From positions 550,695 to 614,694 of the forward strand of contig CAVVNI010000003.1 of the NCBI GenBank assembly GCA_963749585.1: a stretch of DNA of 64,000 nucleotides. Direction: 5' to 3'. A model generated the notes under the pieces. The model had not been told where the DNA came from. It searched no databases and saw only the letters and a list, made by a program, of their open reading frames with translations. The DNA comes from an uncultured Actinomycetota bacterium (lineage in GTDB: Bacteria > Actinomycetota > Actinomycetes > Actinomycetales > Dermatophilaceae). This document shows positions 28,589 to 56,567 of the stretch, in pieces. Position 1 is the first letter of the stretch, and every line of letters starts with the position of its first letter. The translations under genes and the position numbers were made by a program.

Positions 28589-28597
28589 GGAGGCCCG

Positions 28598-40663: not shown

Positions 40664-40675
40664 TGACTGAGGCCG

Positions 40676-40774
40676 ATGAGTGAGCCGGCGATGGTCAGCG
40701 ATGCCGACCATCGCCGGGTCCTTGGCGCTCGCCATCTGCTGACCGCGAGCACTCGCACTGACGACGTTGAGGCG
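40676..40774 (+). pseudogene. Orphan 5' fragment (first 33 codons) of an alkZ/ycaQ-like gene
   Basis: MSEPAMVSDADHRRVLGARHLLTASTRTDDVEA parallels MSAHQISDADRRRLLGARHLLTASARTDDVEA at 55317. After codon 33 similarity stops, and the ORF runs antisense through the 3' end of the GntR gene. Confidence 0.6.
40697..40774 (+). repeat. Left copy of a 78-bp imperfect direct repeat
   Basis: Hand alignment to 55335-55412 gives 72 of 78 identical positions with no gaps. Confidence 0.85.
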
Positions 40775-40858
40775 CACAGGCCTGACACCTCCGGGTCCGG
40801 AAAAGCAAGCGGACGCTCAGTGCTTCTTGGGATCAGAGGCGGAGAGAGTTGGGGCGAG

Positions 40859-41542
40859 TTAATGCGCCAGGTCTGGCGCAAAGAGTCCTTCGTGCTTGGC
40901 AAGCTCAACTCTCGTGCGCCGGATGTGCTGGGTCAGCGTGAGGCAGGCCGCCTCGGTGTCGCCCTCGGCGATAGCCTCGATGAGGAGCCGGTGCTCCGCG
41001 TTGATGATCCACGACCGCTCACGACCGGTGAGTCGGGTGAACGCACGCCGGTAGGACTGGGTCGTGTCCCACAGTCGCTGCGTCAAGTCCGCCAGTTGCG
41101 TGGCCCCATGTTCGGCATATGAGGTCCAGTGCAGCTCGCGGTCAAGCACGAGGAATCGCTCGACGTCGTCCGTGGCTTCGATTTGGTCTTGGAGGGCTCG
41201 CATCCTTGCCACATGATGCTGGGTCAAGTGGGGCATGCTCTCCAACAGGAGTAGCGGCTCCAGACGCTCGCGGATCTTGTAGGAGATCTCGAGGTCCTGC
41301 AGCCTCATCTGCGAGACCCAGGCGCCCGTATTGGCTCGCAGCATCACGAGGCCTCGGGAGGCGAGTATCCGCAGTGCTTCCCTCACTGGAATCCGGCTGG
41401 TCTCGAACTCTTGGGCCAGCTCGTCCTGCTTGATCCTGGTGCCGGGTGCCAGCTTTCCGGACAGAATCCGCTCGGCTACTGCGGTGGCGACCCGATGGCT
41501 AGCGACCGGCGCGCCCGTGTTGATCGGCTCGAGGTCGCTCAC
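40859..41542 (-). CDS. GntR-family transcriptional regulator (FadR subfamily, FCD domain)
   Basis: IL.G.L.PG.R..Q.ELA..F..SR.PVREAL..L...GLV.......GA.V, C-terminal all-helical FCD-like region. GTG 41542 has AGGAG 5 nt upstream, 16 nt after the VOC gene stop. Confidence 0.85.
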   Translation of the reverse strand: MSDLEPINTGAPVASHRVATAVAERILSGKLAPGTRIKQDELAQEFETSRIPVREALRILASRGLVMLRANTGAWVSQMRLQDLEISYKIRERLEPLLLLESMPHLTQHHVARMRALQDQIEATDDVERFLVLDRELHWTSYAEHGATQLADLTQRLWDTTQSYRRAFTRLTGRERSWIINAEHRLLIEAIAEGDTEAACLTLTQHIRRTRVELAKHEGLFAPDLAH

Positions 41543-41558
41543 GTCGGCTCCTGTGAGG

Positions 41559-42068
41559 TCATTCGAACGCGGCTGGGGTTTTGTCGAACGCCTTGCCCTG
41601 TGGGTATGAAACAAGCTCGAACTGCATACCCCACGGGGAAAGGAAGTAGATCCATCGTTGTCCTTGGCTGGCGCCCCGGCTGGTCGTCGCATCGCCAAGA
41701 ACGCGTAGGCCATTGCGGTGCAGGGCCTCTACTGCGACGTCGAAGTCGGTGACGTAGAGGGCGACATGGTGCCCACCGATGTCGCTGTTCAAGGGTGGCT
41801 TCGTCTGTTGATCTGGCGCCTCATACTCGAAGACTTCGAAGATCGCCTGGCCGCCCAACCGGTAGAAATGGAGCCGGCGCATCACGGCCCGATCCGGTAC
41901 GTTGAGATGCTCACTCATCCACGATCCGGAATCTTGGAACGGTCCGAGCCGGTAGAGATACTCGCAGCCCAGAATCTCTGTGAAGAACACGTGCGCTTCG
42001 GCGAGGTCCGGCACGGTCAGCCCAATGTGGTCGACTCGGCTGATCCCAGGAATCAGTATCGGGGACAT
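41559..42068 (-). CDS. VOC-family protein (glyoxalase/bleomycin-resistance/extradiol-dioxygenase fold)
   Basis: ISRVDHIGLTVPDL.EA..FF...LG........GP........, GGHHVALYV.D.D.A...L...G........, W.YF..PWG...EL. The start is taken at ATG 42068 (MSPILIPG). Confidence 0.8.
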   Translation of the reverse strand: MSPILIPGISRVDHIGLTVPDLAEAHVFFTEILGCEYLYRLGPFQDSGSWMSEHLNVPDRAVMRRLHFYRLGGQAIFEVFEYEAPDQQTKPPLNSDIGGHHVALYVTDFDVAVEALHRNGLRVLGDATTSRGASQGQRWIYFLSPWGMQFELVSYPQGKAFDKTPAAFE

Positions 42069-42080
42069 GAGTGCTCCTTG

Positions 42081-42094
42081 CAATGGATCCATTG
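42081..42094. promoter_or_regulatory. Perfect 14-bp palindrome CAATGGATCCATTG in the divergent VOC/GntR - E1 control region (candidate operator)
   Basis: Read directly. It lies 13 nt upstream of the VOC start on the minus strand, within the 152-bp divergent intergenic region. GTATggATAC and TGTCGACA palindromes lie further on in the same region. Confidence 0.3.
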
Positions 42095-42220
42095 GGGTCC
42101 TACTCTAGTCATGGCAGCACCTTATGTCGACACATTGACCAGAGTGTACGGATGGTATGGATACATTCAGTGGCTCTGGATCTTCGCAGCACTCGGTCGA
42201 CCGAAAAGAGAGAGAGCGTC

Positions 42221-44401
42221 ATGGCCAAGACACGCCGCCTGGAAACCGATGCCCCCTGGACGGAAGTACTCGTCGACGAGGGCGACTGGGACGATGCGGA
42301 CCCCTCGCTGCTGCAGACGATGTTCACCCAACTCCAGCTGATCCGTTCGTTCGAGGAATACGTGCTGGAGCTGGCCGCCTCCGGCCTGATCAACGGGCCT
42401 GCACACTCCAGTATCGGTCAGGAGGGAGGAGCCGTCGGCACCGTCCTGGCCTTGGGGGCCGGTGACACTGTGAATGGGTCACACCGGGGGCATCACCAGT
42501 TCCTCGCGAAGGTTATCCAGCACGTGGCCCCTGATGGCGTCCCGATCGATGACTTCTCTGAAGACCTGCGCGCCGTCCTCTTGCGCTGCCTCGCCGAGAT
42601 CTGCGGGCTGGACCGCGGATTCAGCCACGGCCGGGGAGGCTCGATGCATCTGCAATGGAAAGAGGCGGGTGCGATCGGCACGAACGCGATTGTCGGCGGT
42701 GGTGTGCCCTTGGCGGCCGGATCAGCATGGGCGCACCGCAACGCCGGGACGGACCGAGTCGCCGTCACCTACTTCGGTGACGGCGCGATCAACATCGGGT
42801 CGACGCTCGAGACGTTCAACCTCGCTGCGGCCTGGAAGCTCCCCATCTGCTTCGCGATCGAGAACAACCAGTATGCAGTGTCCACCAGTGTCCAAGAGGC
42901 CACGGGCGAGCCGCGGCTCTCGGCTCGGGGTCCCGGATTCGGGATCGCCAGCTGGAAGGTCGACGGCATGGACCCTCTGGCGACCTACCACGCGATGACC
43001 CAAGCTGTGGAACACATGCGAAGCGGCAAGGGACCGGCTGTGGTGGAGTTGGACGTCTACCGCTATTTTCACCAGAACGGCGGCTTTCCCGGCTCCTCGT
43101 TCGGCTACCGAAGCAAAGAAGAGGAGAAGTCGTGGCGGGCACGCGACCCGATCGCCCAAGTCTCCGGTCACCTTGTCCGCAGAGGCATCCTCAGCCAGGA
43201 CGCGATCGACGAGTTTGTCGCCTCCAGCGGTGCGCTCATGGCCGAAATCGGTGACATGCTCGTCGAACCGATGCCCGACGGCAAACCTCGTCAGCGTCGG
43301 ATCAAGCCGGACGAGTGGCCTGACCCCGATTTCGTCAACGTCGGTGTGCGCGGCGACCTCAGCGAGTTCGATGACGTGTCGATGCTCGATGGAGAGCCGG
43401 TCGGTGGCGTGACCCAGGGCCGCTTCGTCGACTCGATCGCCGCCGTGATCGGGCGAGCGATGGACACCGATGAGTCCGTCATCGTGCTGGGCGAGGATGT
43501 CCACCGCCTCAAGGGGGGGACCAACGGTGCGACCCGCGGCCTCAAAGATCAATTCCCCGACCGGGTCCTCGGGACTCCGATCAGCGAGAATGCCTTCACC
43601 GGCTTGGCCGGGGGAATGGCCCTGGACGGGCGGTTCAAGCCGGTTATCGAGTTCATGTATGCCGACTTCATGTGGGTCGCCGCAGACCAGCTCTTCAACC
43701 AGATCGGCAAGGCGCGGCACATGTTCGGGGGCACGGACGAGGTGCCGGTCGTGCTGCGGAGCAAGGTGGCGATGGGGACGGGCTACGGATCTCAACACTC
43801 GATGGATCCTGCCGGCGTGATGGTGACCTCTCCCGGGTGGCGGATCGTGGCCCCATCAACACCGTTGGACTATGTCGGCCTGTTCAATACGGCGCTGCAG
43901 TGCAAGGACCCGGTGATCATTTTGGAGCATGTGGACTTGTACACCTCCATGGGGGATACCCCCGTTCAGGACCTAGATTTCTGCCTGCCCGTCGGGAAGG
44001 CGGCGATCCGGCGCGAGGGCAGTGACATCACCGTCATCACCTACCTCGCCATGACTGCCTACGTCCTCGAGGCAGTCGAAGCGACCGGCGTCGACGCAGA
44101 GGTGATCGACTTGCGTTGGCTCGATCGCGCGAGCATCGACTGGGACACGATCGGCGCGAGCGTTAAGGCGACCAATAACGTCCTGATCGCCGAGCAGGGG
44201 GCCGTCGGCACGTCCTATGGCGGCTGGCTCGCCGACGAGATCCAACGCCGGTTCTTCGACTGGCTCGATGCCCCTATCGAGCGGGTCACAGGTGGGGAGG
44301 CGTCCCCGAGTATCAGCAAGGTTTTGGAGCGGGCTGCGATCGCGCGGTCCGAGGAAGTGGTCGCCAAGCTTGAGCAGCTTGAGCAGCTCGGGGGGAACTG
44401 A
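42221..44401 (+). CDS. Fused E1 alpha/beta component of a thiamine-diphosphate-dependent 2-oxoacid (or acetoin-type) dehydrogenase complex
   Basis: N-terminal half is alpha-like (IRSFEE......G.I.GP.H.S.GQE..AVG......D...GSHRGHH..LAK, GG.G.MH, YFGDGA.N.G...E..N.AA.WKLP..F.IENN.YA). C-terminal half is beta-like (V...GEDV.........T.GL...F...RV..TPISE..F.G...G.A..G..P..E.M..DF, two transketolase-like domains). The start is at MAKTRR (ATG 42221). Confidence 0.85.
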   Translation: MAKTRRLETDAPWTEVLVDEGDWDDADPSLLQTMFTQLQLIRSFEEYVLELAASGLINGPAHSSIGQEGGAVGTVLALGAGDTVNGSHRGHHQFLAKVIQHVAPDGVPIDDFSEDLRAVLLRCLAEICGLDRGFSHGRGGSMHLQWKEAGAIGTNAIVGGGVPLAAGSAWAHRNAGTDRVAVTYFGDGAINIGSTLETFNLAAAWKLPICFAIENNQYAVSTSVQEATGEPRLSARGPGFGIASWKVDGMDPLATYHAMTQAVEHMRSGKGPAVVELDVYRYFHQNGGFPGSSFGYRSKEEEKSWRARDPIAQVSGHLVRRGILSQDAIDEFVASSGALMAEIGDMLVEPMPDGKPRQRRIKPDEWPDPDFVNVGVRGDLSEFDDVSMLDGEPVGGVTQGRFVDSIAAVIGRAMDTDESVIVLGEDVHRLKGGTNGATRGLKDQFPDRVLGTPISENAFTGLAGGMALDGRFKPVIEFMYADFMWVAADQLFNQIGKARHMFGGTDEVPVVLRSKVAMGTGYGSQHSMDPAGVMVTSPGWRIVAPSTPLDYVGLFNTALQCKDPVIILEHVDLYTSMGDTPVQDLDFCLPVGKAAIRREGSDITVITYLAMTAYVLEAVEATGVDAEVIDLRWLDRASIDWDTIGASVKATNNVLIAEQGAVGTSYGGWLADEIQRRFFDWLDAPIERVTGGEASPSISKVLERAAIARSEEVVAKLEQLEQLGGN

Positions 44402-44402
44402 C

Positions 44403-45776
44403 ATGGCATACCTGTTGTACATGCCCGAGGTGGCCGCTGACTCAGCTGAGGCGGTCCTGCAGGACTGGGTCGTCGCCGAGAACACGGAGTTCTCGGCTGC
44501 GGAGACTCTCGCGACGGTCGAGACCGAGAAGGCGGTGATCGACGTCGAGGCCGAGTCGGCGGGCCTCATCGTGCGGAGGTTGGTCGAGGCAGGTGACTCG
44601 GTGATCCTGGGCGACCCCATTGCGCTGATCGCCGAGCCAGATGAACGGGTGGGCGACGTTGATGCGCTGCTGGTCAGTTTGGGTGCCAGAAACGGCGCCA
44701 CGCACGAGCAGGCCGCCACGCAAGAGCAGGGCGCTACGTCAGAGGAGACAACCGCGCAGGATGAGGCGACCGGGCAACCGGAGAGGGCGGCGAGCTCACC
44801 GGTGCCGACGGGCGAGGGTGAGGAGCGGGCCGAGACGCGGGCGAAGACTCAATCCCGGCTATTCATCAGTCCGCTCGCCCGCACCTTGGCCCGAGATGCC
44901 GGTCTCGACGCCGATCACGTCACCGGGACGGGACCCAAGGGCCGGATCCGCAAGCGGGACGTCGAGGCTGCCATCGCTGGTCGTGCCGAGCCGCAGGGCG
45001 GTCAGGCAGGGCGGGATCAGCCGGAAGGCGATCAGCCCAAGGGGTCGGCAGGGCAGCCATCGCAAGGCTCAGGAACCCAGCCAGAGGGCGTGCCGAACGG
45101 CTACACCGAGGTGCCGCATACGCGCATCCGTCGCGCGGTCGCCTCTCGCCTGTTACTCAGCAAGCAGACCGTCCCGCACTTCTACGTCAAGGGAACCGCC
45201 GATGTCGAGGCGCTGATGGCCCTGCGCGAGGGCATCAATGCCACCGGGCCGGTGCGTGTCTCCCTCAACGACCTACTGGTCAAGGCGGCCGGAGTGGCGC
45301 TGAGCCTCCACCCGGAGATGAACGTCACGTGGACCGAGGAGGCGGTTCGCGCCTACGAGAGTGTCTCTCTCTCGGTGGCGATCGCGAGTGAACGCGGATT
45401 GGTGGCCCCGGTCCTGCGAAATGTCGACACGATGAGGATCACCGAGATTTCGGCTGCAGTTCGGGATCTCGCCGAGCGTGCCAATGCCGGCACGCTGACA
45501 CAAGCCGAACTCGAGGGCGGGGCCTTCAGCCTCAGCAACCTGGGCATGTTGGGTACAGAGGAATTCACGGCCATCATCAACCCACCCCAAGCGGCCATTC
45601 TTGCGGTGGGGGCGATTCGCGAGGAACCAGTAGTCCGTCAGGGAAGAGTGGAAGTGTCGCAGGTGATCCACTTCGTCCTCTCCGTTGATCATCGCCCCGT
45701 AGATGGGGTGGTCGCCGCAAAGTGGATGCGGACCTTCCTGGGGATACTCGAGTCACCGTTGAGGATCCTTCTCTGA
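44403..45776 (+). CDS. Dihydrolipoamide acyltransferase (E2): one lipoyl domain, E1/E3-binding domain, catalytic domain
   Basis: Lipoyl block LATVETEKAVIDVEA; PSBD ISPLARTLARDAGLD...V.GTGPKGRI.K.DVE; catalytic SLSNLGM.G...F.AIINPPQAAILAVG and SVDHRPVDG. ATG 44403 is 1 nt after the E1 stop. Confidence 0.9.
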   Translation: MAYLLYMPEVAADSAEAVLQDWVVAENTEFSAAETLATVETEKAVIDVEAESAGLIVRRLVEAGDSVILGDPIALIAEPDERVGDVDALLVSLGARNGATHEQAATQEQGATSEETTAQDEATGQPERAASSPVPTGEGEERAETRAKTQSRLFISPLARTLARDAGLDADHVTGTGPKGRIRKRDVEAAIAGRAEPQGGQAGRDQPEGDQPKGSAGQPSQGSGTQPEGVPNGYTEVPHTRIRRAVASRLLLSKQTVPHFYVKGTADVEALMALREGINATGPVRVSLNDLLVKAAGVALSLHPEMNVTWTEEAVRAYESVSLSVAIASERGLVAPVLRNVDTMRITEISAAVRDLAERANAGTLTQAELEGGAFSLSNLGMLGTEEFTAIINPPQAAILAVGAIREEPVVRQGRVEVSQVIHFVLSVDHRPVDGVVAAKWMRTFLGILESPLRILL

Positions 45777-45929: not shown

Positions 45930-45954
45930 CAGACAAATATCCGGTAGGGCTGGT

Positions 45955-46647
45955 ATGAGTCTGACCAACACGACCCCTGAGTGGGTGGGGATCGGCACCC
46001 GGATTCGGGGGGCCCGCAAAGAGGCACGCCTCAGCGTGCGCGAACTTGCCCGACGGATGAGCGTTTCCCCGAGTCATGTCTCGCAGGTGGAGCGGGGCTT
46101 GGCCTCCTTCAGCGTGCGGGCGCTGTACAACGTCACGAACGTGCTGGATATCTCCATGGACAGCCTCTTTGAGGACGGTAAGGTCCCGGCCGAGGTGGCA
46201 TCCCCCCCAACTGCGAGTGGCCGGCAACCCGCTGAGGACGACCCGTTGGTGGATTCCCTCGTGGTGATGCGCGCTTCGCAGCGGCCCACCATCTCGCTGG
46301 AAGGCGACACTCGGTGGGAGCGGCTCACCCCGAAGCCGGAAATCGCAGCCGAGTTCATCGAAGTGATCTATGCACCTCATGCCGGCGGCACCCCCGTGGA
46401 CGAGTTCATTCGGCACTCCAGCCGGGAGTACGGCATCGTGATTCAAGGCTCGCTGAGTGTTCAAGTGGCCTTCGATCGGGCGGTGCTCAATCCCGGTGAT
46501 TCGATCGCCTTCGACTCATCCACTCCGCACCGATTCTGGAATGACACCGCCGAGGAAGTCCGTGCCATCTGGTTCATCTCGGATGGGCCAGATAGTGGCA
46601 AGACTCCAGAGTTGGGCACGGAGCCGCAGGGAGGCCGCCACTCCTGA
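45955..46647 (+). CDS. XRE-family HTH regulator with a C-terminal cupin domain (PuuR-like architecture)
   Basis: IG.RIRGARKEARLSVRELARRM.VSPSHVSQVERG (HTH_3), then a cupin part H...EYGIV..G.L.V.......L.PGDSI.FDS..PHRF.N. The start is at MSLTN (ATG 45955). Confidence 0.8.
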   Translation: MSLTNTTPEWVGIGTRIRGARKEARLSVRELARRMSVSPSHVSQVERGLASFSVRALYNVTNVLDISMDSLFEDGKVPAEVASPPTASGRQPAEDDPLVDSLVVMRASQRPTISLEGDTRWERLTPKPEIAAEFIEVIYAPHAGGTPVDEFIRHSSREYGIVIQGSLSVQVAFDRAVLNPGDSIAFDSSTPHRFWNDTAEEVRAIWFISDGPDSGKTPELGTEPQGGRHS

Positions 46648-46875: not shown

Positions 46876-48408
46876 ATGACGAAGCAAGGCTCACCTGAGG
46901 CGCAGGGCACCGTCGTGATCGAGGCGACGTCCGTCGTCAAGCGTTTCGGCGGTGCGACAGCGGTTGATGACGTCAGCGTCCAAGTTCGCGCCGGGGAGAT
47001 CTACGGAATCGTCGGCGAGAACGGTGCCGGCAAGTCGACCCTCATGCGCATGCTGGCGGGGATACTGACCCCGACCGAGGGTGTTGTCACGGTGGACGGA
47101 CGTCCCCTCGAGGGTGGCGCCAAGGGGGCGATCGAGGCAGGAATCGCGTTGGTCCATCAGGAGCTGAGCCTGGTGCCAGAGATGACCAGCGCCGAAAACA
47201 TCATGCTCGGAGCCTTCCCGACGAGCTACGGATTCATTAAGTCCAAGGATCTGAGGAAGATCGCGAACGATGCGATCGAGGAGATCGGCGTGGGGGTCGA
47301 CCTCGACGAGCGAGTGGCCCGACTCTCCGTGGCGCTGCGCCAGTTCGTTGAGATCGCTCGCGCTGTCGCCCGCAAGCCCCGGGTGCTGATCCTCGATGAA
47401 CCCACCGCGACGTTGACTCCCGCTGAGACCGACTACCTGCTGGCGATGCTGCAGCGGCTCGCTGGGCGTGGGCTCGCCATTCTCTATATTTCGCACCGTC
47501 TCCCGGAAATCTTCACGATCTGCGATCGGGTCACGGTGCTGCGAGATGGGCGTCACATCAAGACGATGGACATCGGGGACACCACGCCAGACGACCTCGT
47601 CGACCAGATGGTCGGCGGCGAGCTCAAGGCAGATCTGCAGGTCCATCGAGACGTAGAACTAGGGGAGGTGGTCCTGGACGCGCGAGGTGTCCAGGCCCCA
47701 GGGGTGAACGACATCGATCTGCAGGTGCGGGCCGGTGAGATCGTTGGCCTCGGCGGGCTGGTCGGTGCCGGTCGCACCGAACTGGTGCGGGCGATTCTGG
47801 GTGTGGACCCTAGAACGGCAGGCGATGTCACGATCACGGTCGCAGGTGAGACGAAGAGAATCACCAGCTACCAAAGCGCCATAGACAGCGGTGCGGCATA
47901 CGTGCCAGAGGAGCGCAGGACCGACGGCCTGGCTCTGACCATGTCGGTCGTGGACAACATCACCCTGCCTAACCGAGGCAAGCTTTCCACCTACGGGGTA
48001 CTGATGCCGAAGCAGATCACCCCCTTCGCCCAAGAACTCTCAGAGTCTGTCGGCCTCAGACCGCCTAAAATCAAGAGCGCAGCGGGTGAATTCAGCGGGG
48101 GCAACCAGCAGAAGATCGTCATAGCGAAGTGGCTCGGTCGAGAGCCCGACCTGATCGTCCTTGATGAACCGACCAGGGGGGTGGATGTCGGCGCCAAGGC
48201 CGAGATTCACCGGCTCGTCCGTGAACTTGGTAGTCGTGGCACAGCGGTGTTGGTGGTGAGCTCCGACCTCGCAGAACTTCTCGACCTCTCTGATGTGGTC
48301 CACGTGATCAGGGACGGTCGGATCACGGGAACGCTGACCGCGGCGGAGGCAGACGAAAAGTCAGTCATGTTACTTGCGTCCGGAGGAACGTTGGTGGATA
48401 GCGCATGA
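46876..48408 (+). CDS. Sugar-type (CUT2) ABC transporter ATP-binding protein with duplicated NBD (RbsA/MglA-like)
   Basis: First NBD has GENGAGKSTLM..L.G and ILDEPTA.L. The second has a degenerate Walker A (GLGGLVGAGRTEL), FSGGNQQKIVIAKWL and LDEPTRGVDVGAK. 510 aa. Confidence 0.9.
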   Translation: MTKQGSPEAQGTVVIEATSVVKRFGGATAVDDVSVQVRAGEIYGIVGENGAGKSTLMRMLAGILTPTEGVVTVDGRPLEGGAKGAIEAGIALVHQELSLVPEMTSAENIMLGAFPTSYGFIKSKDLRKIANDAIEEIGVGVDLDERVARLSVALRQFVEIARAVARKPRVLILDEPTATLTPAETDYLLAMLQRLAGRGLAILYISHRLPEIFTICDRVTVLRDGRHIKTMDIGDTTPDDLVDQMVGGELKADLQVHRDVELGEVVLDARGVQAPGVNDIDLQVRAGEIVGLGGLVGAGRTELVRAILGVDPRTAGDVTITVAGETKRITSYQSAIDSGAAYVPEERRTDGLALTMSVVDNITLPNRGKLSTYGVLMPKQITPFAQELSESVGLRPPKIKSAAGEFSGGNQQKIVIAKWLGREPDLIVLDEPTRGVDVGAKAEIHRLVRELGSRGTAVLVVSSDLAELLDLSDVVHVIRDGRITGTLTAAEADEKSVMLLASGGTLVDSA

Positions 48409-49424
48409 GCAAAGTAGATACCGACCAAAGCGCCACTAAGACGCAGGCACCACCGGTTGAACGGGACCCTTCCGCACGAAATGCCGCGATTCTTGCCTGG
48501 GTCGCCGAGCGCGGCATCTTCTTCTTCACCATCGCTCTCATTCTGTTCGCAGTGTTCTTCGTCGACGGTTTTGCCTCGCTGGTCAACATCACCGACGTCT
48601 TTCACCGGGCTGCACCGATCGGTATCGTGGCGGTCGGCATGACCTTCGTGGTGATTTCGGGCAACTATCTGGACCTGTCCGTGGTGGCGCAAGTCGCTAC
48701 CTCCGCGGTGATCCTGATCGCGGTAAGCAACTCGTACGGGATTGTGGTCGCTGTCCCGGCCGCGCTTCTGGTCGCCTTGATCTATGGGGTTGTCAACGGC
48801 GCTGCGGTCGGATATTTCAAAGCCAACGCCGTCATCGTCACACTGTCGACGTCCTACATCGGTCTGGGACTCCTGCGCTGGCTGTCCGGCGGCAGCATCT
48901 TTTTCGGTCCATCAGATGGTGTCATCGCCACCATCGGGCAGGTCAAAGTCGGGCCCGTGCCGATCTCGGCCATCGTTCTGATCGCGATGGCCCTGCTGCT
49001 GGCCTTCGTGCTGGACCGGAGCAACTTCGGCTTCCTGATCCGTGCTTTCGGCTCGAACAACGAGGCGACTCGACTGAGTGGGGTGGCGACCCCGCGAGTG
49101 GTGCTCGGTGCCTTCTTGATAACTGCCCTTTCCGCCACGATCGCTGGGTTCGTGCTGGCTGCTTTCTCCAACACCGCCGTGTCGACGATGTCCGACGGTT
49201 TCGACTTCGGTGCGCTGGCGGCGATCATCATCGGCGGGACCAGCGTGTTCGGCGGCAAGGGAAGTGTGTTGAGGACACTGCTGGGGGTGGTGTTCGTCAG
49301 CGTGCTGACCAACGTCTTGGTCATATCAAACATCGGATTCGGCTGGCAACAGATGGCGATCGGGGCACTCATCGTCCTAGCGGTCGCTGTCGACTCCCTC
49401 GCCCGGAAGGGAACTAGGCGATGA
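48405..49424 (+). CDS. CUT2 ABC transporter permease (RbsC-like)
   Basis: About 10 TM helices; IDLSV......S.V........; GG.S..GG.G.V..T..G. ATGA overlap with the ATPase gene. Confidence 0.85.
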   Translation: MSKVDTDQSATKTQAPPVERDPSARNAAILAWVAERGIFFFTIALILFAVFFVDGFASLVNITDVFHRAAPIGIVAVGMTFVVISGNYLDLSVVAQVATSAVILIAVSNSYGIVVAVPAALLVALIYGVVNGAAVGYFKANAVIVTLSTSYIGLGLLRWLSGGSIFFGPSDGVIATIGQVKVGPVPISAIVLIAMALLLAFVLDRSNFGFLIRAFGSNNEATRLSGVATPRVVLGAFLITALSATIAGFVLAAFSNTAVSTMSDGFDFGALAAIIIGGTSVFGGKGSVLRTLLGVVFVSVLTNVLVISNIGFGWQQMAIGALIVLAVAVDSLARKGTRR

Positions 49425-50500
49425 CCAACCTCGACACTCTCGATCTGGCTCAAAGCGGCGCGGGCTCCAGCAAATGGCGTGCCTCCCTCGCCCGTCGAAC
49501 CGAGTGGCGGGCTGTCAGCCTTCTCGTGATCGTCGTGATCGTTGCCCTGGTGATGGAGCCATTGGTCTTCACCGCCTACGAAGTCACACTCGGGCGGGTG
49601 GCCTTGATCGGGTTGGTCGCACTCGGGTTGACGGCGGTCATCTTGATGGGCGAACTCGATCTGAGTGTGGCCAGCACGCTGGCCGTCTCCGGCGTGGTGA
49701 TGGCGAGCGTTCCGAACTTTACTCTTGGAATCCTCGCCGCGCTTGCCACCGGCCTCCTCATCGGCGTCGTGAACGCCTTCCTGGTAGTCAAAGTAGGCAT
49801 CAACTCCTTTATTGCGACCCTCGGCATGCTCTTCGTGTTGCGCGGTCTCGCGTTCGTGCTTTCCGACGAGAAGCCTGTTCGGCTGACCAACATCGAGGCG
49901 GGCATCGAGTTCGGGAGACCGCTGATTGGCCCGCTCACGCCACGCATCCTTCTGTTCGTCCTCGCTTTCGTAGCGCTGCAAGTCTTCGTCACCAGGGTGC
50001 GCGCGGGGCGTGAGTTTTTCGCGGTGGGCGGCAACCGTCAGGGTGCTCGCGACGCAGGTATCCCGGTGTCGCGACGCCTGTACACCGGCTTCATGATCTC
50101 GGGTTTCGTCGCTGCCCTGGCGGGTGTGATCAACACGATGGAACTGACTGCGGCAGACCCAACTGCAGGTTCCAGTGTCCTGTTGTCGAGTTTTGCTGCC
50201 GCGATCATCGGTGGTAGTGCCCTGACCGGCGGTCGGGGCTCGATCGTGGGAACTCTCATCGGGGCTCTATCGCTGGGAATCCTCGAGGTGGGGCTCACTT
50301 TGTCTGGTGTTCAGATCGACGTGCAGCAGATCTTCATCGGTGGTGTACTGCTCATCGCTGTTATCACCGATCCCGCGGGTCTACGAGCCGCCCGGGCAAA
50401 CCTCGTCGCGTCCCTCCAGAGCCGCCAAGCCAGCAGCCAGCCGGCTACACCGACTCACAACACGCCGCCAACTCACAACACGCCGCCACGGTCGCAATAG
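49421..50500 (+). CDS. Second CUT2 ABC transporter permease (RbsC-like), with a Thr/Pro-rich C-terminal tail
   Basis: GELDLSV.S..A........, IIGG.ALTGGRGSIVGTLIGAL. ATGA overlap. The tail reads ...ATPTHNTPPTHNTPPRSQ. Confidence 0.85.
   Translation: MTNLDTLDLAQSGAGSSKWRASLARRTEWRAVSLLVIVVIVALVMEPLVFTAYEVTLGRVALIGLVALGLTAVILMGELDLSVASTLAVSGVVMASVPNFTLGILAALATGLLIGVVNAFLVVKVGINSFIATLGMLFVLRGLAFVLSDEKPVRLTNIEAGIEFGRPLIGPLTPRILLFVLAFVALQVFVTRVRAGREFFAVGGNRQGARDAGIPVSRRLYTGFMISGFVAALAGVINTMELTAADPTAGSSVLLSSFAAAIIGGSALTGGRGSIVGTLIGALSLGILEVGLTLSGVQIDVQQIFIGGVLLIAVITDPAGLRAARANLVASLQSRQASSQPATPTHNTPPTHNTPPRSQ
50453..50488 (+). repeat. Perfect 18-bp tandem duplication (ACTCACAACACGCCGCCA x2) encoding THNTPP x2
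   Basis: Read directly at the 3' end of the second permease gene. Confidence 0.9.
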
Positions 50501-50533
50501 AAGTCACGGTCCCAGAGAAGAGGAAGACAAGCG

Positions 50534-51517
50534 ATGAGAACGCCCCGTTTCACCACCGGAGCCGTTGGCTTCCTGGCAGCAGTCAGCCTGATCTTGAGCG
50601 GCTGCGGCTCCTCCGACGACGACTCGGGTGGCGGCGAATTCTCGGTCTACGCGCTTCTGCCGCAGGGGACCGACCAGCCCTACGGAACGACGTACCTGCC
50701 ACCGATGAGAGAGGAGGCGGCGAAGAATGGAATCGACCTCACCATCACCAACGCTCAGTACGACGCAGACCAGCAGGCCAGCGACTGCACAGTGGCGGTT
50801 GCCTCTGAACCCGACCTCATCATCCTCTGGCCGGCCGTAGGCGACACTGCACTTCCATGTCTCGCCAAGGCCCAGTCGGCCGATATCCCGGTCACGATCA
50901 GCAACTCTGACGTGAATCCCGAAGACAAGGAGTACACCGCGGGATACTCCGGGCCGGACACCTATGGTCAGGGTGCCGCGTCGGCGGAGATGATGTGCGA
51001 GCTCGCAGATGGCGAGCCCACCAACATCATCATGGTGAACGGGCAAACCGGTAACTCCACGGCGATCAACCGCCGCGCGGGTTTCATGGAAACCATCGCG
51101 TCCGAGTGTCCCAACGTGACGATTCTGGCGGAGCAGCCCGGGAACTGGAATAAGGACGACTCCCAGACCGTCACATCCGAAATGCTCACATCCGTCGGGG
51201 CCGACAAGGTCGATGGGATCTTCGCCGCCGACGACACGATGATCGCTGGCGCTATTGCGGCTCTCAAGTCCCGCGGCATTGACCCTGAGCCGCTCCACAT
51301 CACCTCTATTGGCAACACGGAACTGGGCAACCCCCTGGTGAAGTCCGGCGAACTCGACGGGACCATCTTTCAGTCTTCTTCGTGGGATGGCCGCAATGCC
51401 ATTGTTATCGCGGACCAGGTCTTGAACGGTGAAACTGTGGAGGAGGACCTCTTCATGCCCTCGATCAAGGTCACCCAGGAGAACGCGGATGATCCCGAAG
51501 TCGCTCCTGAGTGGTGA
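50534..51517 (+). CDS. CUT2 ABC transporter substrate-binding lipoprotein (RbsB-like, periplasmic-binding-protein type I fold)
   Basis: Lipobox LILSGCGSS; alternating beta-alpha pattern with ...DLIILWP...., IPV...N......., G..A...M.......I....G..G......R..GF, GIFA.DD.M..GA..AL...G. Confidence 0.85.
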   Translation: MRTPRFTTGAVGFLAAVSLILSGCGSSDDDSGGGEFSVYALLPQGTDQPYGTTYLPPMREEAAKNGIDLTITNAQYDADQQASDCTVAVASEPDLIILWPAVGDTALPCLAKAQSADIPVTISNSDVNPEDKEYTAGYSGPDTYGQGAASAEMMCELADGEPTNIIMVNGQTGNSTAINRRAGFMETIASECPNVTILAEQPGNWNKDDSQTVTSEMLTSVGADKVDGIFAADDTMIAGAIAALKSRGIDPEPLHITSIGNTELGNPLVKSGELDGTIFQSSSWDGRNAIVIADQVLNGETVEEDLFMPSIKVTQENADDPEVAPEW

Positions 51518-51613
51518 CCGTGTTCACGCGATCCGAATCAACGGGGGTGCGGCACGGTGCCGTTCGTGCATCGGGCTGCGCCCCGTCCCGCCGATCCATA
51601 CTGGAGATCTGAC

Positions 51614-52900
51614 ATGGCCACGATCCTGGAAACCCCACCGCTGACGCCCGCGCTCGACTTTGGCGTGCGCAACATACCGGCTCCTGGCCACATGGGTGTC
51701 GACTACGAGGCGCGGGTCGATTTCGGCAGGCTACGTGACTACCGACTGGCTCGGGCCGTGGGGTCGTTGGAGGCCAGTGGGTGCGGGGCGTTCCTGCTCT
51801 TCGACTTCTACAACATCCGCTACTCCACGCAGACCTGGATTGGCGGCGCCCTGGGCGACAAGATGTCTCGCTACGCCCTCCTGACTCGCGACGCTCAGCC
51901 GCACCTGTGGGACTTCGGCTCAGCGGCGAAACACCACAGGCTCTATGCTCCGTGGCTGGAGCCGGATCGGTGTCGAGCCGGGATGCTCGGCTTACGTGGC
52001 GCGATCAGCCCCGAGGCGGGACTGATGAAGGATGCCGTCACCGACATCAAGGGCTTGCTGACTGATGCGGGAGTGGTGGATGAACCCGTCGGCGTGGACA
52101 TCGTCGAGCCTGCGTTCCTCTTCGAAATGCAGGCCCAGGGGCTGACGGTGGTCGATATCCAGCAACACATGTTGGACGCCCGCGCCATCAAGTCGGTCGA
52201 CGAGATCATGTTGTTGAGCCAGGCTGCGGCGATGGTCGACGGCGTGTACCAAGACATCGTTGAAGCACTGAAGCCGGGAGTGCGGGAGAACGACATCGTC
52301 GCGCTGGCCAATAAGCGGCTCTACGAGATGGGTTCGGACCAGGTCGAGGCGGTCAACGCCGTGTCAGGAGAGCGCTGCAACCCGCACCCACACAACTTCA
52401 CCGACCGCATTATCCGGCCGGGAGATCAGGCGTTCTTCGACATCATCCACTCCTTCAATGGCTACCGGACGTGCTACTACCGCACGTTCTCGGTGGGTTC
52501 ATCGACCCCACCGCAGCATGAGGCGTACACGCGCGCACGCGAGTGGATGGACGCGGCGATCGACAAGGTCGCCGACGGAGTAGGCACCGATGAAGTGGCT
52601 CAACTCTGGCCCAAGGCAACAGATCTCGGGTTCGCCAGCGAGATGGACGCATTCGGTCTGCAGTTCGGTCACGGGCTCGGTCTGGGTCTGCACGAGCGGC
52701 CGATCATCTCGCGTCTCAACAGCCTGACGAATCCGGTGGAGATCAAGAACGGCATGGTCTTCGCCCTCGAAACGTACTGCCCGGCATCCGACGGAGTCTC
52801 TGCGGCGCGGATCGAGGAGGAGGTCGTCGTGACCGAAAAGGGCGCCGAGGTTCTCACACGGTTCCCGGCCCAGACACTGTTTGTGGCAAACAAGTACTGA
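51614..52900 (+). CDS. M24-family (pita-bread fold) metallohydrolase with a creatinase-type N-domain; resembles creatinase, ectoine hydrolase and DddP-type enzymes more than a housekeeping aminopeptidase
   Basis: FLLFDFYNIRYST (compare DddP LLMFDPLNIRYAT as I recall it), AIKSVDEI.LL, PGDQAFFDI...FNGYR.CYYRTF, HGLGLGLHERP, NGMVFALET, ARIEEEVVVTE.G.E.LT.FP. The start is at MATILE (ATG 51614). Confidence 0.75.
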   Translation: MATILETPPLTPALDFGVRNIPAPGHMGVDYEARVDFGRLRDYRLARAVGSLEASGCGAFLLFDFYNIRYSTQTWIGGALGDKMSRYALLTRDAQPHLWDFGSAAKHHRLYAPWLEPDRCRAGMLGLRGAISPEAGLMKDAVTDIKGLLTDAGVVDEPVGVDIVEPAFLFEMQAQGLTVVDIQQHMLDARAIKSVDEIMLLSQAAAMVDGVYQDIVEALKPGVRENDIVALANKRLYEMGSDQVEAVNAVSGERCNPHPHNFTDRIIRPGDQAFFDIIHSFNGYRTCYYRTFSVGSSTPPQHEAYTRAREWMDAAIDKVADGVGTDEVAQLWPKATDLGFASEMDAFGLQFGHGLGLGLHERPIISRLNSLTNPVEIKNGMVFALETYCPASDGVSAARIEEEVVVTEKGAEVLTRFPAQTLFVANKY

Positions 52901-52932
52901 ACTACCCACTCCATGCACGGAAGGAACCTCAG

Positions 52933-53736
52933 ATGGACACCACCCGATTGGCTGGCAAGCACATTCTGATCACTGGAGCTGCGCAGGGCATGGGGGCCGC
53001 CGTCGCCCATGACTACGCGGCCCAGGGCGCGAAAGTCTGCCTCGGGGACGTCAACGTCGACGGAGCCGCCGAGAGCGCCGAAGAGATCCGGATGAGGGGT
53101 GGTGTCGCCACCTCGGTCAAGCTCGACGTCTCCAGTGAGGAAGACGCCGCCGCCGCTGTCGCCCACACCGTCGAGCAGTTCGGCAGCATCAACGTCCTGG
53201 TGAATAACGCCGGGATCAACAAGCCGCTGTTCTTCCTCGATATCACGCGCGACAACTGGCAACGCATCATGGACGTCAATGCCTGGGGAACGCTCAACTG
53301 TATGCAGGCTGCGGCCCGCCAAATGAAAGCACAGGGGAAGCAGGACTACCCCTACAAGATCATCAACGTCGGGTCGATCCTGTCCCGCGAAGTATTCGAC
53401 GACGTCGTGGTCTACTCGGCCTCGAAACACGCGGTGCTGGCGATGATCAAGGGTGGCGCGAAGTCGCTGATCGAACACAACATCACCGTCAACGGCTACG
53501 GTCCCGGTGTCGTACGCACCGAGCTGTGGGAGCAGTTGGACAAGGATCTGGTCGAGATCGGGAAGTTTTCCACGCCAGGTGAGTCGATGGACTCCCTCGC
53601 CGAAAACATGATTCTGATGAAGCGTTACTCCTACCCCGAGGACGTCGTGGGCACCGCGTCGTTCCTCGCAAGCGCGGATAGCGACTACATGACGGGTCAA
53701 CTCCTCATGATCGATGGAGGAATGGTCATGCAGTGA
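52933..53736 (+). CDS. Classical short-chain dehydrogenase/reductase (SDR)
   Basis: GKH.LITGAAQGMG (TGxxxGxG), NNAGI, catalytic YSASKHAV, PG.V.T, MTGQ.L.IDGG. Confidence 0.9.
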   Translation: MDTTRLAGKHILITGAAQGMGAAVAHDYAAQGAKVCLGDVNVDGAAESAEEIRMRGGVATSVKLDVSSEEDAAAAVAHTVEQFGSINVLVNNAGINKPLFFLDITRDNWQRIMDVNAWGTLNCMQAAARQMKAQGKQDYPYKIINVGSILSREVFDDVVVYSASKHAVLAMIKGGAKSLIEHNITVNGYGPGVVRTELWEQLDKDLVEIGKFSTPGESMDSLAENMILMKRYSYPEDVVGTASFLASADSDYMTGQLLMIDGGMVMQ

Positions 53737-53794
53737 GGCCCCAGGGGGCACTCACCTCAGCCGCCAGTCCCATCCTGGCTCACTCGTGAAAGGA

Positions 53795-55240
53795 ATGATC
53801 ATCAGCGCGCTCGATGTTCGGTCCCAGCTGTTCATCGGCGGAGAGTGGATCACGTCCGCGACCCGTCTGCCTGTCCACAACCCCGCGACCGGTGACGTGC
53901 TGGCCGAGGTCGCAGACGCCACGGTCGACGAGGCGCTCCAGGCCGTCGGATCGGCGTACGACGCGGCTGGCGGTTGGGCCGCCTCCTCGCCTCGCGAGCG
54001 AGCAGAGGTCCTGCGCCGCTCCTTCGAGATCATGACCGAGGAAATCGAGGATTGCGCGCGCCTCATCGTGCTCGAAAACGGCAAAGCGTGGAGCGACGCG
54101 ATGGGCGAGGCACGCTATGCCGCCGAGTTCTTCCGGTGGTTCTCTGAGGAGGCCTGTCGGGTGCCCGGTGACTTCCGGATGGCTCCCGGAGGAGACAAGA
54201 CAATCATCGTGGACCACCGCCCGCTGGGTGTCGCCTACCTGATCACCCCCTGGAACTTCCCTGCGGCGATGGCCACCCGGAAGTTGGCTCCAGCCTTGGC
54301 GGCTGGTTGCACCACGGTGCTCAAACCCGCCGCCGAAACTCCTCTGACCGCGCTGTGGGTGGCCGACGTGATGCAGCGGGCGGGGGCGCCAGCGGGCGTT
54401 GTCAATGTGATCCCGACGTCGGCGTCTGGCCCCGTCTCCGAGGCGGTGTTGGCCGACTCGCGCGTGGCTACGCTGTCGTTCACCGGTTCGACCTACGTCG
54501 GGAAGTTGCTGCTGTCGCAAACGGCGCAGCGAGTCCTGCCATCATCGATGGAGCTTGGCGGTAATGCCCCACTGATCGTCCTGGAGGGGGCTCTGGTCGA
54601 GCGCGCCGTCGAGGGGGCGTTGGTGGCCAAGATGCGTAACGGTGGGTGCGCCTGCACGGCGGCGAATCGGTTCTACGTCCACGAGTCACTGGCAGAGTCC
54701 TTCACGGCGCAGTTCCAGTCAGCGCTCGCCGCACTGCGAGTCGGCCCTGGGATCGAGAGGCACCATGAGCTTGGAGCGATGGTGAGCACCAAGGAGCGCG
54801 ACAAGATCCTCGATCTGGTGAGCCAAGCCGAGGCCGAAGGCGGGCGGAGCGTCACGGTGTCAGAAGCACCCAGCAGGGGCGCCTTCCTGGCTCCGCGCAT
54901 CGTGCACGACGTCGAGCAAGGCTCGGTGCTGACCCGCAACGAAATCTTCGGTCCGGTCGCGCCGATCGTGACGTTCAACTCCACGCAGGAGGCGATCTCG
55001 ATGGCCAACGACACAACGTATGGCCTGATTTCCTACGTGTTCGCGCAGAACGACGCTGAGGGCCTGCGAGTCGGCGCCCGGATGGAGTCGGGAATGGTCG
55101 CGGTCAACCGCGGTATCGCCTCCGATCCAGCCGCGCCGTTTGGCGGTTTCAAGGAGTCCGGTCTGGGCCGCGAGGGGGGTTTTGCCGGCATCCACGAGTT
55201 CCTGGAGACCCAGTACCTCGCCGTCGACCTGCGACCCTAG
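53795..55240 (+). CDS. NAD(P)-dependent aldehyde dehydrogenase (succinate-semialdehyde dehydrogenase-like)
   Basis: LFIGGEW......L.V.NPATG..LA.V.DA, ITPWNFP.AM..RK.APALAAGCT.VLKPA..TPLT, FTGST.VG, MELGGNAP, cysteine block GG.ACTAANR, EIFGPV. The start is uncertain (ATG 53795 or GTG 53786; the track ORF starts at 53714). Confidence 0.9.
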   Translation: MIISALDVRSQLFIGGEWITSATRLPVHNPATGDVLAEVADATVDEALQAVGSAYDAAGGWAASSPRERAEVLRRSFEIMTEEIEDCARLIVLENGKAWSDAMGEARYAAEFFRWFSEEACRVPGDFRMAPGGDKTIIVDHRPLGVAYLITPWNFPAAMATRKLAPALAAGCTTVLKPAAETPLTALWVADVMQRAGAPAGVVNVIPTSASGPVSEAVLADSRVATLSFTGSTYVGKLLLSQTAQRVLPSSMELGGNAPLIVLEGALVERAVEGALVAKMRNGGCACTAANRFYVHESLAESFTAQFQSALAALRVGPGIERHHELGAMVSTKERDKILDLVSQAEAEGGRSVTVSEAPSRGAFLAPRIVHDVEQGSVLTRNEIFGPVAPIVTFNSTQEAISMANDTTYGLISYVFAQNDAEGLRVGARMESGMVAVNRGIASDPAAPFGGFKESGLGREGGFAGIHEFLETQYLAVDLRP

Positions 55241-55316
55241 TTTCAACCGACGTGCCCTTTCTGACGAAGGTCCCTGGGGTGGTCGTCGCGTTGGTGCTTG
55301 ATGCGACCCTGATCTA

Positions 55317-56567
55317 ATGTCGGCTCACCAGATCAGCGATGCCGACCGTCGCCGGCTCCTTGGCGCCCGCCATCTGCTGACCGCGAGCGCTCGCACTGAT
55401 GACGTCGAGGCGATCTCGCGGTCGGTCGTGGCGCTGCACTCCACGGATCCGGTCAGCGTGTACCTCAGCGTTCTTGCCCGGATGCGCAACCCAGACCTGA
55501 ACTCCGTCGCGGAGGCGCTCTACACCCGTCGTTCGCTGATTCGGCACCACGCAATGCGGCGCACATTGTGGGTCGCCACAGCGGACACCGTGGCGCTGAT
55601 GCACCATGCCTGCACGCTCAAGATCGCTGACGTGGAACGTCGCAAGACCGAAGCCTTCTTGGCCACCTCGGGTATCTCCGAGCCGGGGCGGTGGTTGATC
55701 CACGCCAAGGATCGGGTATGCGACGTGCTGGCCGAGCGCGGCCCGACGAGCGCCCGCGACATTGGCAAGCTGTTGCCGGAGGTCGCTCGCCCTCTGACCA
55801 TGGCAGAGGGGAAGACCTATGCCGGCACTCAGGGAGCGCATTCACGAGTGCTGACCGGGCTCGGGTTCGAGGGGCGAGGCGTGCGCACTCGGCCCAGTGG
55901 CAGCTGGATCAACGGACAGTATGCGTGGGCGCGCATGCAGGAGTGGGCACCCGACCTGCATACCTCGCTGCTGGCCGACGCCGGCCACAACGACGTGAGC
56001 CAGATGCCAGCGCAGGCGGAGTTGGCGAGGCTGTGGTTGAGCCGGTTCGGTCCGGGCACGGAGCGCGACCTCTCGTGGTGGGCCGGCTGGACACTCGGGG
56101 ACACGCGGGCGGCTTTGGCAGCATGCGGCGCCGAAGCCGTGGAAGTACAGACCGGATCGGCTTGGGTGTTGCCGGAGGACATCGAGGTGCTGGGTGCGGG
56201 GAAGCGTGGCGTGAACGGTGAGTTCGCCGACGAGCCGTGGGTGGCCCTGCTGCCAGGTCTGGACCCGAGCGTGATGGGCTGGAAGGAACGGGGCTTCTAC
56301 CTGCCATCTGGTGGGGAGCGGGCGTGGGACACCTATGGCAACGCAGGGCCGACAGTGTGGGTCGACGGAGCGGTGGTTGGCGCGTGGGGGCAGGCCAACA
56401 GCGGCGAGATCCGGCTACGCTACTTCACCGACCTGCCGCTCGCCCGCCGACGTGAGATCGAGGATCGGGCCGCGCAGGTCGGCGAATGGCTCGGTGCGAC
56501 CCGGATCTCCTGGCGCTTTCCGGGCGCTATCAATGCCGAGTTGATCGCACGGCCGGGATCGAGCTGA
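55317..56567 (+). CDS. Winged-helix DUF1006 / HTH_42 superfamily protein (AlkZ/YcaQ-like DNA glycosylase family)
   Basis: 416 aa. N-terminal RRRLLGARHLLT......V.A..R.VVALHSTDP.SVYLS..AR, SL....AMR.TLW..., C-terminal WRFPG... Overall length and pattern are typical of this family. Confidence 0.75.
   Translation: MSAHQISDADRRRLLGARHLLTASARTDDVEAISRSVVALHSTDPVSVYLSVLARMRNPDLNSVAEALYTRRSLIRHHAMRRTLWVATADTVALMHHACTLKIADVERRKTEAFLATSGISEPGRWLIHAKDRVCDVLAERGPTSARDIGKLLPEVARPLTMAEGKTYAGTQGAHSRVLTGLGFEGRGVRTRPSGSWINGQYAWARMQEWAPDLHTSLLADAGHNDVSQMPAQAELARLWLSRFGPGTERDLSWWAGWTLGDTRAALAACGAEAVEVQTGSAWVLPEDIEVLGAGKRGVNGEFADEPWVALLPGLDPSVMGWKERGFYLPSGGERAWDTYGNAGPTVWVDGAVVGAWGQANSGEIRLRYFTDLPLARRREIEDRAAQVGEWLGATRISWRFPGAINAELIARPGSS
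55335..55412 (+). repeat. Right copy of the 78-bp imperfect direct repeat
   Basis: 72 of 78 positions identical to 40697-40774. It lies inside codons 7-32 of the intact alkZ/ycaQ-like gene. Confidence 0.85.

Follow-up and report, generated by a model that had tools for sequence, protein, structure and literature searches.

A twelve-gene catabolic module inserted between azlD and alkZ in an uncultured member of the Dermatophilaceae, bounded by a mosaic duplication of the gene junction

How does a complete set of regulators, transporter and catabolic enzymes come to lie between two genes that are neighbours in related bacteria, when no recombinase gene accompanies it? The question is raised by a 64,000-nucleotide (nt) stretch of contig CAVVNI010000003.1 from an uncultured, Ornithinimicrobium-like Dermatophilaceae bacterium (hereafter the window), in which a block of twelve genes separates azlD from alkZ. 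A first-pass annotation, made from the letters of the window, had described the block as the footprint of an island at a gene 5′ end, bounded by attL/attR-like repeats. The insertion and the replacement alkZ 5′ end stood up to our analysis; the site-specific picture did not. We favour, with a probability of roughly 0.5, a reading in which the module brought along a diverged azlD–alkZ junction of its own and was joined by homologous recombination rather than by a site-specific att reaction. With both scars kept, the locus shows a complete, regulated uptake-and-catabolism module entering a chromosome without a mobility gene, and a dead alkZ stub, an azlD remnant and a discordant 5′ part of alkZ jointly record the exchange.

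An insertion relative to the sampled relatives

Related loci were collected from Ornithinimicrobium/Dermatophilaceae metagenome-assembled genomes (MAGs) by a scan for AlkZ-like proteins with one genome per species, which gave eight close loci. The first-pass annotation had expected an empty site to show azlCD followed directly by one intact alkZ, and this is what was found in nine relatives' loci (L003, L004, L005, L007, L008, L009, L010, L089 and L138). Six of them (L003, L005, L007, L008, L009 and L010) share the order MFS, (restriction endonuclease-like), azlC, azlD, alkZ, with an S15-ABC gene after alkZ in all except L010, whose contig stops inside alkZ. In L004 and the metagenome contig L089, alkZ lies immediately 3′ of azlD. 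The AlkZ orthologues that follow azlD in relatives are 59–77% identical in amino acids (aa) to that of the window. L138 is a 44.7-kb contig that is 99.1% identical to L010 and belongs to its species. It is syntenic with window positions 31486–63794 minus 40775–55346; most aligned blocks had 82–87% nt identity, and alkZ 79.6–82.2%. The azlD–alkZ adjacency in all nine loci, together with the synteny of L138 over about 20 kb on both sides, thus identifies the block as an insertion, gained by this lineage between azlD and alkZ. The insert proper spans 40775–55260 (14,486 nt, 12 genes) and ends 84 nt past the GntR stop on the left and 20 nt past the aldehyde dehydrogenase stop on the right (Table 1).

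Since the window is part of a MAG contig (1.46 Mb), and repeats can mislead assemblers, an assembly chimera had to be considered. We give it practically no weight. Two Logan contigs that were assembled separately from run ERR11594398 reproduce the junctions, at 100% and 99.97% identity (L002, corresponding to 38884–42093, and L001, to 55187–57781), which makes misassembly very unlikely; moreover, a repeat of 80 nt and 93% identity is not strong enough to cause a misjoin, and the azlD remnant and alkZ stub described below form coherent biological scars.

Table 1. Features of the azlD–alkZ locus in window coordinates
Feature	Position	Strand	Basis
azlC, resident left flank	39630..40352	+	PF03591, 5.7e-29; 89.8% nt identity to L010
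azlD, intact resident gene, 104 aa	40349..40663	+	PF05437; 90.5% nt identity to L010; identical protein on L002
Left junction copy: last 57 nt of azlD, long L010-type spacer, first 99 nt of alkZ	40607..40774	+	Alignments
Orphan alkZ stub, 33 codons, not a gene	40676..40774	+	Translation; no Pfam match
Strong hairpin, left copy only	40682..40720	+	Inverted repeat I15; fold -37.1 kcal/mol, z = -4.7
High-identity part of left repeat (Z1-left)	40695..40774	+	74/80 to 55333–55412; only 57/80 to L010
Left insert edge between stub and GntR stop codon	40775..40858	.	84 nt matching neither relatives' alkZ nor L086/L087 DNA downstream of GntR
GntR/FCD regulator, first module gene	40859..41542	-	PF00392 + PF07729; 227 aa in L002; same module position in L086/L087
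VOC/glyoxalase-family protein	41559..42068	-	PF00903 on identical L002 gene; conserved in L086/L087
Fused E1 alpha/beta, 2-oxoacid/acetoin-type dehydrogenase, 726 aa	42221..44401	+	PF00676 + PF02779 + PF02780; identical to P0121
E2 lipoyl acyltransferase	44403..45776	+	PF00364 + PF02817 + PF00198; start set by L086 comparison
XRE-HTH + cupin regulator, PuuR-like architecture	45955..46647	+	PF01381 + PF07883; weak PuuR match below cut-off
Sugar-type ABC importer: double ATPase, two BPD_transp_2 permeases, Peripla_BP_4 binding protein	46876..51517	+	Pfam; YtfQ/RbsB NCBIfam matches sub-threshold
M24-family hydrolase	51614..52900	+	PF00557; best NCBIfam match DddP, 101 bits (cut-off 600), not a member
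Short-chain dehydrogenase (SDR)	52933..53736	+	PF13561 / PF00106; acetoin-reductase subfamily match below cut-off
SSADH-like aldehyde dehydrogenase, last module gene	53795..55240	+	PF00171, 2.8e-140
azlD 3′ remnant (a′)	55261..55317	+	Encodes LTKVPGVVVALVLDATLI and a stop; TAA overlaps alkZ ATG
Intact AlkZ-like gene, 416 aa	55317..56567	+	PF06224, 164.5 bits (cut-off 25.9), profile positions 3–329 of 329
High-identity part of right repeat (Z1-right)	55333..55412	+	Repeat alignments
alkZ 5′ segment, ancestry discordant with both flanks	55317..55816	+	Probable end of imported tract

A mosaic duplication of the azlD–alkZ junction

The block is bracketed by direct repeats, 40695–40774 and 55333–55412, which are identical at 74/80 positions without gaps (blastn, pairwise E = 8e-31). 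The 72 of 78 identities counted by hand in the first-pass annotation for 40697–40774 and 55335–55412 were reproduced, the blastn match being slightly longer. A 30-nt core of the repeat, with at most three mismatches allowed, occurred at two sites only in the 64-kb window and in none of 100 shuffles. Translation agreed with the earlier description of an ATG and a similar N-terminal peptide before both copies: MSEPAMVSDADHRRVLGARHLLTASTRTDDVEA after the ATG at 40676 on the left, and MSAHQISDADRRRLLGARHLLTASARTDDVEA at the N-terminus of the 416-aa open reading frame (ORF) on the right. The right copy is indeed the start of an intact gene, whose full-length profile match to PF06224 places the product in the AlkZ/YcaQ (HTH_42) family; no NCBIfam model was reached, and no solved structure was matched by sequence. 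The left copy proved equally to be a 33-codon orphan after azlD. Its alignment to L010/L138 is unbroken up to 40774, and similarity to alkZ ends at this position for every relative aligned; the ORF then continues antisense to the GntR/FCD gene, on to 41122, and a Pfam search with it returned no match. The junction sequences are GACGTTGAGGCGCACAGGCCTGAC on the left and GATGCGACCCTGATCTAATGTCGGCTCACC on the right.

The extent of the repeat required revision. The 78-nt match is real, but the right copy begins at 55261, not at 55335, and includes a 3′ remnant of azlD. This remnant is identical to the resident azlD end at 41/57 positions and to those of other relatives at 33–42/57; the resident AzlD C-terminus reads LTMVTGMVIVWVLDATVN and that of relatives VWVLDATLF. 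The presence of the remnant in the right repeat (55261–55412) means that the duplicated unit is the entire azlD-end/alkZ-start junction, 152–168 nt in length. The duplication is a mosaic: its azlD part is 72% identical between copies (41/57) and its alkZ part 93% (74/80; Fisher p = 0.0018). The copies also differ in layout. The right one has the compact stop/start overlap TAATG, present as TGATG in L004, L005, L007 and L008, and the left one has a long spacer common to the closest relatives L010/L138 and, more loosely, to L003. With its azlD remnant and compact overlap, the right repeat is a foreign-type copy of the junction.

One conceivable origin of such a structure is an illegitimate insertion in place, in this lineage, in which a linear fragment captured at a staggered break, or through replication template switching, duplicated some 150–170 nt of the target and the dead halves later decayed. 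The gross arrangement, a tandem azlD-end/alkZ-start duplication with foreign DNA at the junction, is what this would produce; the insert is cut almost exactly to gene ends, and 4/6 differences within the 80-nt stretch are peculiar to the dead left copy. Dead halves should nevertheless decay alike, and the observed 28% and 7.5% differences (p = 0.0018) are not expected from in-place duplication with both decaying neutrally. Nor would duplication followed by decay restore the ancestral compact overlap: the TAATG of distant relatives, in place of the long spacer of the clade, would have to re-evolve. This origin also leaves unexplained the excess synonymous divergence of the alkZ 5′ part presented below, and we consider it unlikely.

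Compared with the species of L010 and L138, nt identities of the window were 90.6% for the MFS gene, 89.8% for azlC and 90.5% for azlD, and fell to 79.5% for alkZ; the control pair L008/L009, with similar flank divergence, showed no drop in alkZ. In bootstrapped neighbour-joining, the left flank grouped the window with L010 as sisters in 300/300 replicates and 55817–56144 did so in 296/300, as against 3/300 for 55517–55816. Third-codon-position identity to L138 over 55333–55816 was 55%, compared with 63–81% in 15 other genes and 68% in the rest of alkZ; values of 55–56% in the alkZ 5′ part and 79–81% in the MFS gene, azlC and azlD differed with p = 4e-8. The interval 55524–55823 was the lowest of 174 sliding windows, at 75.3% (mean 85.9, standard deviation 3.9). 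Such excess divergence at synonymous sites reflects deeper coalescence, not relaxed selection.

Possible routes of entry

Under the reading that we favour, the incoming DNA would have carried a diverged azlD-end/alkZ-start junction (55261–55412, probably on to about 55800) and would have entered the chromosome by homologous recombination at the shared junction. Most likely, this would have been a double exchange with a divergent relative that already held repeat, module and repeat at this locus, with exchange points near 40695 on the left and near 55800 on the right. Both 80-nt copies would then be of donor type, and each shows 71–74% identity to L010, as the alkZ 5′ segment does; the 7.5% difference between them would reflect how long ago the duplication arose in the donor, and the 28% difference between the azlD parts the divergence of donor and recipient. 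Less likely, a single crossover of a circular intermediate carrying the junction would yield the same gross structure; this variant predicts native alkZ right after the repeat and is disfavoured by the ancestry data. The resident alkZ start would have been left as the dead 33-codon stub, with the working alkZ on the imported junction. Of the two origins offered earlier for the mismatches between the repeats, an old event or recombination between diverged alleles, the mosaic identity and the alkZ ancestry favour the second.

Island gain by homologous recombination in conserved flanks, with mosaic tracts from a diverged donor, is well known, for instance from distributive conjugal transfer in mycobacteria. 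The present locus resembles it in having no recombinase of its own, bounding segments of different ancestry and an empty site in relatives. However, replacement of this kind normally leaves no duplicated junction, and the persistence of stub and remnant here implies either that the donor already had the duplication or that a single crossover took place. In homology-facilitated illegitimate recombination, a one-sided homologous anchor is combined with a microhomology join, which would fit the right exchange inside alkZ and the abrupt left join at 40774/40775; the stub and the right copy would then be predicted to differ as much as the azlD parts (28%), in contrast to the 7.5% observed. The case is a clean but fairly ordinary gene gain by recombination, of the known class of recombinase-less islands acquired through flank or junction homology, and it leaves the current understanding of island biology unchanged.

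Searches agreed with the earlier statement that the segment holds no integrase, transposase, tRNA or inverted terminal repeat. Recombinase or transposase domains were absent (Pfam) from the 12 island ORFs and from those scanned to either side, out to about 10 kb, a tRNA search of the window found none, the block has no terminal inverted repeats and an Rfam search gave no match. Non-coding gaps within the block do not exceed 230 nt and so leave no room for a further hidden gene. A transposon or composite insertion sequence (IS) was rejected, given the lack of a transposase and of terminal inverted repeats and a duplication of 152–168 nt.

The proposal that the block be sought elsewhere was borne out in part: it was found in seven other contexts, and no plasmid carries it. 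These contexts keep the same 12-gene order at 73–79% nt identity to the window, and identity ends at gene ends, indicating a discrete unit with sharp borders. Next after the module come a DDE transposase and nar genes in L083, ADH and TetR genes in L084, a DUF4185 gene in L085, pgm and glgC-like genes in L134/L135 and a FAD_binding_4 gene in L136; it lies between a qcr/cta/trpD region and a His_Phos_1 gene in L086/L137, and in L087 an ECF sigma gene adjoins it and an IS110 is 4.4 kb away. None of the seven copies is near azlD or alkZ. With eight different places in related actinobacteria, the module is a recurrently relocated unit. Flanking repeats were absent from contig_5289, the only other copy that could be tested on both sides, and were thus rejected as a general property of the module for that copy.

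These observations bear on site-specific integration by a recombinase acting in trans, in which the repeats would be attL and attR and attP would have carried a replacement alkZ 5′ end. Imperfect direct repeats do bracket the block exactly, at a gene 5′ end, the replacement N-terminus leaves alkZ intact, and a block without recombinase has a precedent in the H47 island of Escherichia coli (PMC3191183, PMC5426353). Against this, the longest identical run of the 80-nt pair (21 nt) is internal, with just 6 identical nt at the island-proximal edge; similarity extends over 152–168 nt with a sharp 72%/93% mosaic; and discordant ancestry runs about 400 nt beyond the repeat. In addition, the 21-nt core was present among 137 loci only in the contigs of the strain itself (L001 and L002), the other seven copies occupy unrelated sites, the one testable on both sides having no repeat, and no integrase lies within about 10 kb. 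The mosaic repeat, the 21-nt run off the edge, some 500 nt of foreign-looking alkZ and the other copies, of which the one testable has no repeats, together disfavour the att picture, and integration of this kind seems to us improbable.

The H47 island, which encodes microcin H47, is about 13 kb long and has extensive imperfect direct repeats and no integrase or excisionase (PMC3191183, PMC5426353). Its excision and integration were demonstrated experimentally and are RecA-independent, with hybrid sites in several short identical segments; other strains have empty single-copy sites, and the repeats are widespread in E. coli (PMC3191183, PMC5426353). Our locus is likewise a small recombinase-free island with imperfect direct repeats and empty sites in relatives. 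It is unlike H47 in that the repeats are a resident gene junction and were found only in this strain (single junction copies of relatives are 57–64/80 identical to the repeat), that a flanking gene carries a recombination tract, and that it is known from sequence alone. By analogy with H47, the repeats might serve a 'parasitic' cassette without a recombinase as functional attachment sites, with host functions excising the 12-gene module and reinserting it at the azlD/alkZ junction, a proposal that we regard as quite doubtful. If true, it would provide a first actinobacterial example of this poorly understood, RecA-independent type of mobility, with a replacement alkZ start that makes insertion harmless.

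Two further systems invite comparison. SXT/R391 elements target the 5′ end of prfC and supply a new one; they are conjugative elements of about 100 kb with their own tyrosine integrase and a short identical core. In both cases the insertion point falls in the first ~100 nt of a coding sequence, and a replacement start and N-terminus keep the gene intact, whereas the integrase, the short identical core and the ~100-kb conjugative nature are all absent here. The cis-mobilizable elements (CIMEs) of Streptococcus thermophilus are remnants of integrative and conjugative elements (ICEs), bounded by att sites that the integrase of a related ICE can recognise, and devoid of recombination genes. Direct-repeat borders and the lack of recombination or transfer genes are shared with them; unlike in CIMEs, the window contains neither an ICE remnant nor a related integrase, and cargo fills the whole interval.

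The insertion could also be ancient, preceding the split of the window, L010 and L003, if the long spacer evolved in the unconstrained left copy and the L010/L138 and L003 lineages later lost the module by recombination between the repeats. Such recombination would leave azlD, long spacer and alkZ, as in L010/L138 and L003, and old age would account for the decayed azlD remnant. At least two independent precise losses would be required, however, making this the least parsimonious history; the alkZ stub should match the decay of the remnant but retains 93% identity with the live copy; and the more distant L004–L009 and L089 bear no trace of the module. We hold such a history to be highly improbable.

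The difference in composition suspected in the first-pass annotation was found. GC content is 63.1% in the island and 66.6 and 66.8% in the flanks; GC at third codon positions (GC3) is 0.769 in the island and 0.799 in the flanks (p = 0.0016), and at first positions (GC1) 0.638 and 0.693 (p = 6e-5). In tetranucleotide usage the island lies at a distance of 0.19–0.22 from the rest of the window, and the flanks at 0.11–0.14 (~1.6x), and the lowest-GC 14.5-kb interval of the whole 64-kb sequence begins at 40601. These differences are modest, and the same offset is seen in other hosts: in 4/5 other genomes, too, the module lies 3–5 GC points under the host flanks. The lower GC appears to be a property of the module and no clock for its arrival; the value of composition as evidence is reduced, and it was not retained as proof of recent foreign origin. 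In L083–L087, module GC follows host GC while staying 3–5 points lower in four of the five copies; either repeated transfer or an intrinsically lower composition would give this pattern.

The shared GC offset is one of several points that weigh against the reading we favour. Neither a donor nor a second genome with the module at azlD/alkZ was found in AlkZ scans of genomes and metagenome contigs or in the surroundings of eight module copies, nor in protein searches with the aldehyde dehydrogenase, E1 and AlkZ, where the best homologues reached only 77% (AlkZ) and 87% aa identity (aldehyde dehydrogenase and E1). Three other places also come down to 75–76% identity, so that the drop in the alkZ 5′ part is the deepest and not unique. 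At 80 nt, and with 57–64/80 identity to L010 and L003, the shared stretch lacks the length and the constancy needed for phylogeny. The window and the L010/L138 lineage are not formally distinguishable as the recombinant; the window is the parsimonious choice, since the discordant segment directly adjoins the insert with its foreign-type junction, and the junction of L010 is continuous. L003 was uninformative as a third taxon for picking the recombinant lineage, its alkZ being 70.3% identical to the window and 70.5% to L010. Finally, the recombination reading shifts the first duplication back to an unseen donor, and neither it nor any of the other readings explains how that duplication arose.

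Cargo, consequences for alkZ and neighbouring genes

Pfam matches agreed with the gene content claimed for the block: regulators, a transporter and catabolic enzymes. Judging by its architecture, the module may take up a sugar- or polyol-like compound. From the predicted enzymes, the pathway might proceed by oxidation through the SDR and cleavage by the acetoin-dehydrogenase-like E1/E2, with the aldehyde dehydrogenase as the finishing step. NCBIfam gave no name to the cargo enzymes, every match lying below its curated cut-off (DddP 101/600, DoeA 49/613, SSADH subfamily 481/646, acetoin reductase 230/304). Known pathways considered as candidates (the dimethylsulfoniopropionate lyase DddP, ectoine DoeA, acetoin dehydrogenase and GabD) were rejected, all being far below cut-offs.

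The closest homologues of the aldehyde dehydrogenase and of E1 are 85–87% and 86–87% identical in aa. The aldehyde dehydrogenase is two codons longer at its C-terminus than its homologues, and homology to other modules stops at about 55230: it ends in VDLRP followed by TAG (55226–55240), and all homologues end in VDL followed by TGA. The right breakpoint of the module may thus lie in or beside the original stop codon of this gene.

Transposase genes accompany some of the other copies at inconsistent positions. A DDE_Tnp_1 gene (11455–12168) lies directly 3′ of the aldehyde dehydrogenase gene in L083, the IS110 of L087 (3001–4239) is upstream of the module, and a Transposase_29-like gene (19321–21428) is 8 kb downstream in L084. 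Several module genes of L084 are fragmented, and in L009 azlD is split by an apparent frameshift (9745–9995); both are probably MAG assembly errors and not biology.

A plasmid origin was rejected, as coverage by plasmid records reaches at most 43% for either half of the block, with identity of at most 72%. A looser enzyme set (M24, E1, E2, SDR, SSADH-like aldehyde dehydrogenase, sometimes GntR and VOC) occurs at 66–72% identity on plasmids of the roseobacters Tritonibacter, Phaeobacter and Marinovum and of Streptomyces and Citricoccus. This recurrence suggests a widespread catabolic pathway without an NCBIfam name, one that may merit identification.

In relatives, azlD and alkZ are translationally coupled, and their overlapping stop and start in several of them, which the right copy of the window shows at 55315–55319, points to an azlCD-alkZ operon that combines a branched-chain amino-acid exporter with a putative DNA glycosylase. 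In the window, alkZ is apart from azlCD. Its start lies 76 nt past the stop of the aldehyde dehydrogenase gene with no promoter- or terminator-like site between, and a promoter and terminator search at the junctions found none; alkZ therefore probably shares a transcript with the module, produced by read-through from the preceding aldehyde dehydrogenase gene.

The spacer before the stub (40682–40720) is the inverted complement of stub (alkZ) codons 10–15 and forms an 18-bp hairpin. The hairpin is absent from the live right copy, which folds no better than shuffled sequences. It could be a templated (quasi-palindrome) mutation in a pseudogene or a new terminator after azlD.

Between the MFS gene and azlC, a 314-aa ORF (38445–39389, minus strand) has a weak match to REase_MTES_1575. 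A similar ORF is present in L003, L010 and L138 and not in L005, L007, L008 and L009, which makes it a second presence/absence difference at this locus. Downstream of alkZ, a 920-aa ORF (56758–59520, plus strand) fuses an S15/CocE-type hydrolase (Peptidase_S15 and PepX_C) to an ABC ATPase domain and is followed by an ABC-2 permease gene; this unusual architecture is a single gene in L003–L009 and in L138 as well (985 aa). A photolyase gene lies about 5 kb upstream of the azlD/alkZ locus, and further upstream a second stretch, 19000–29000, has slightly lower GC (64–66%).

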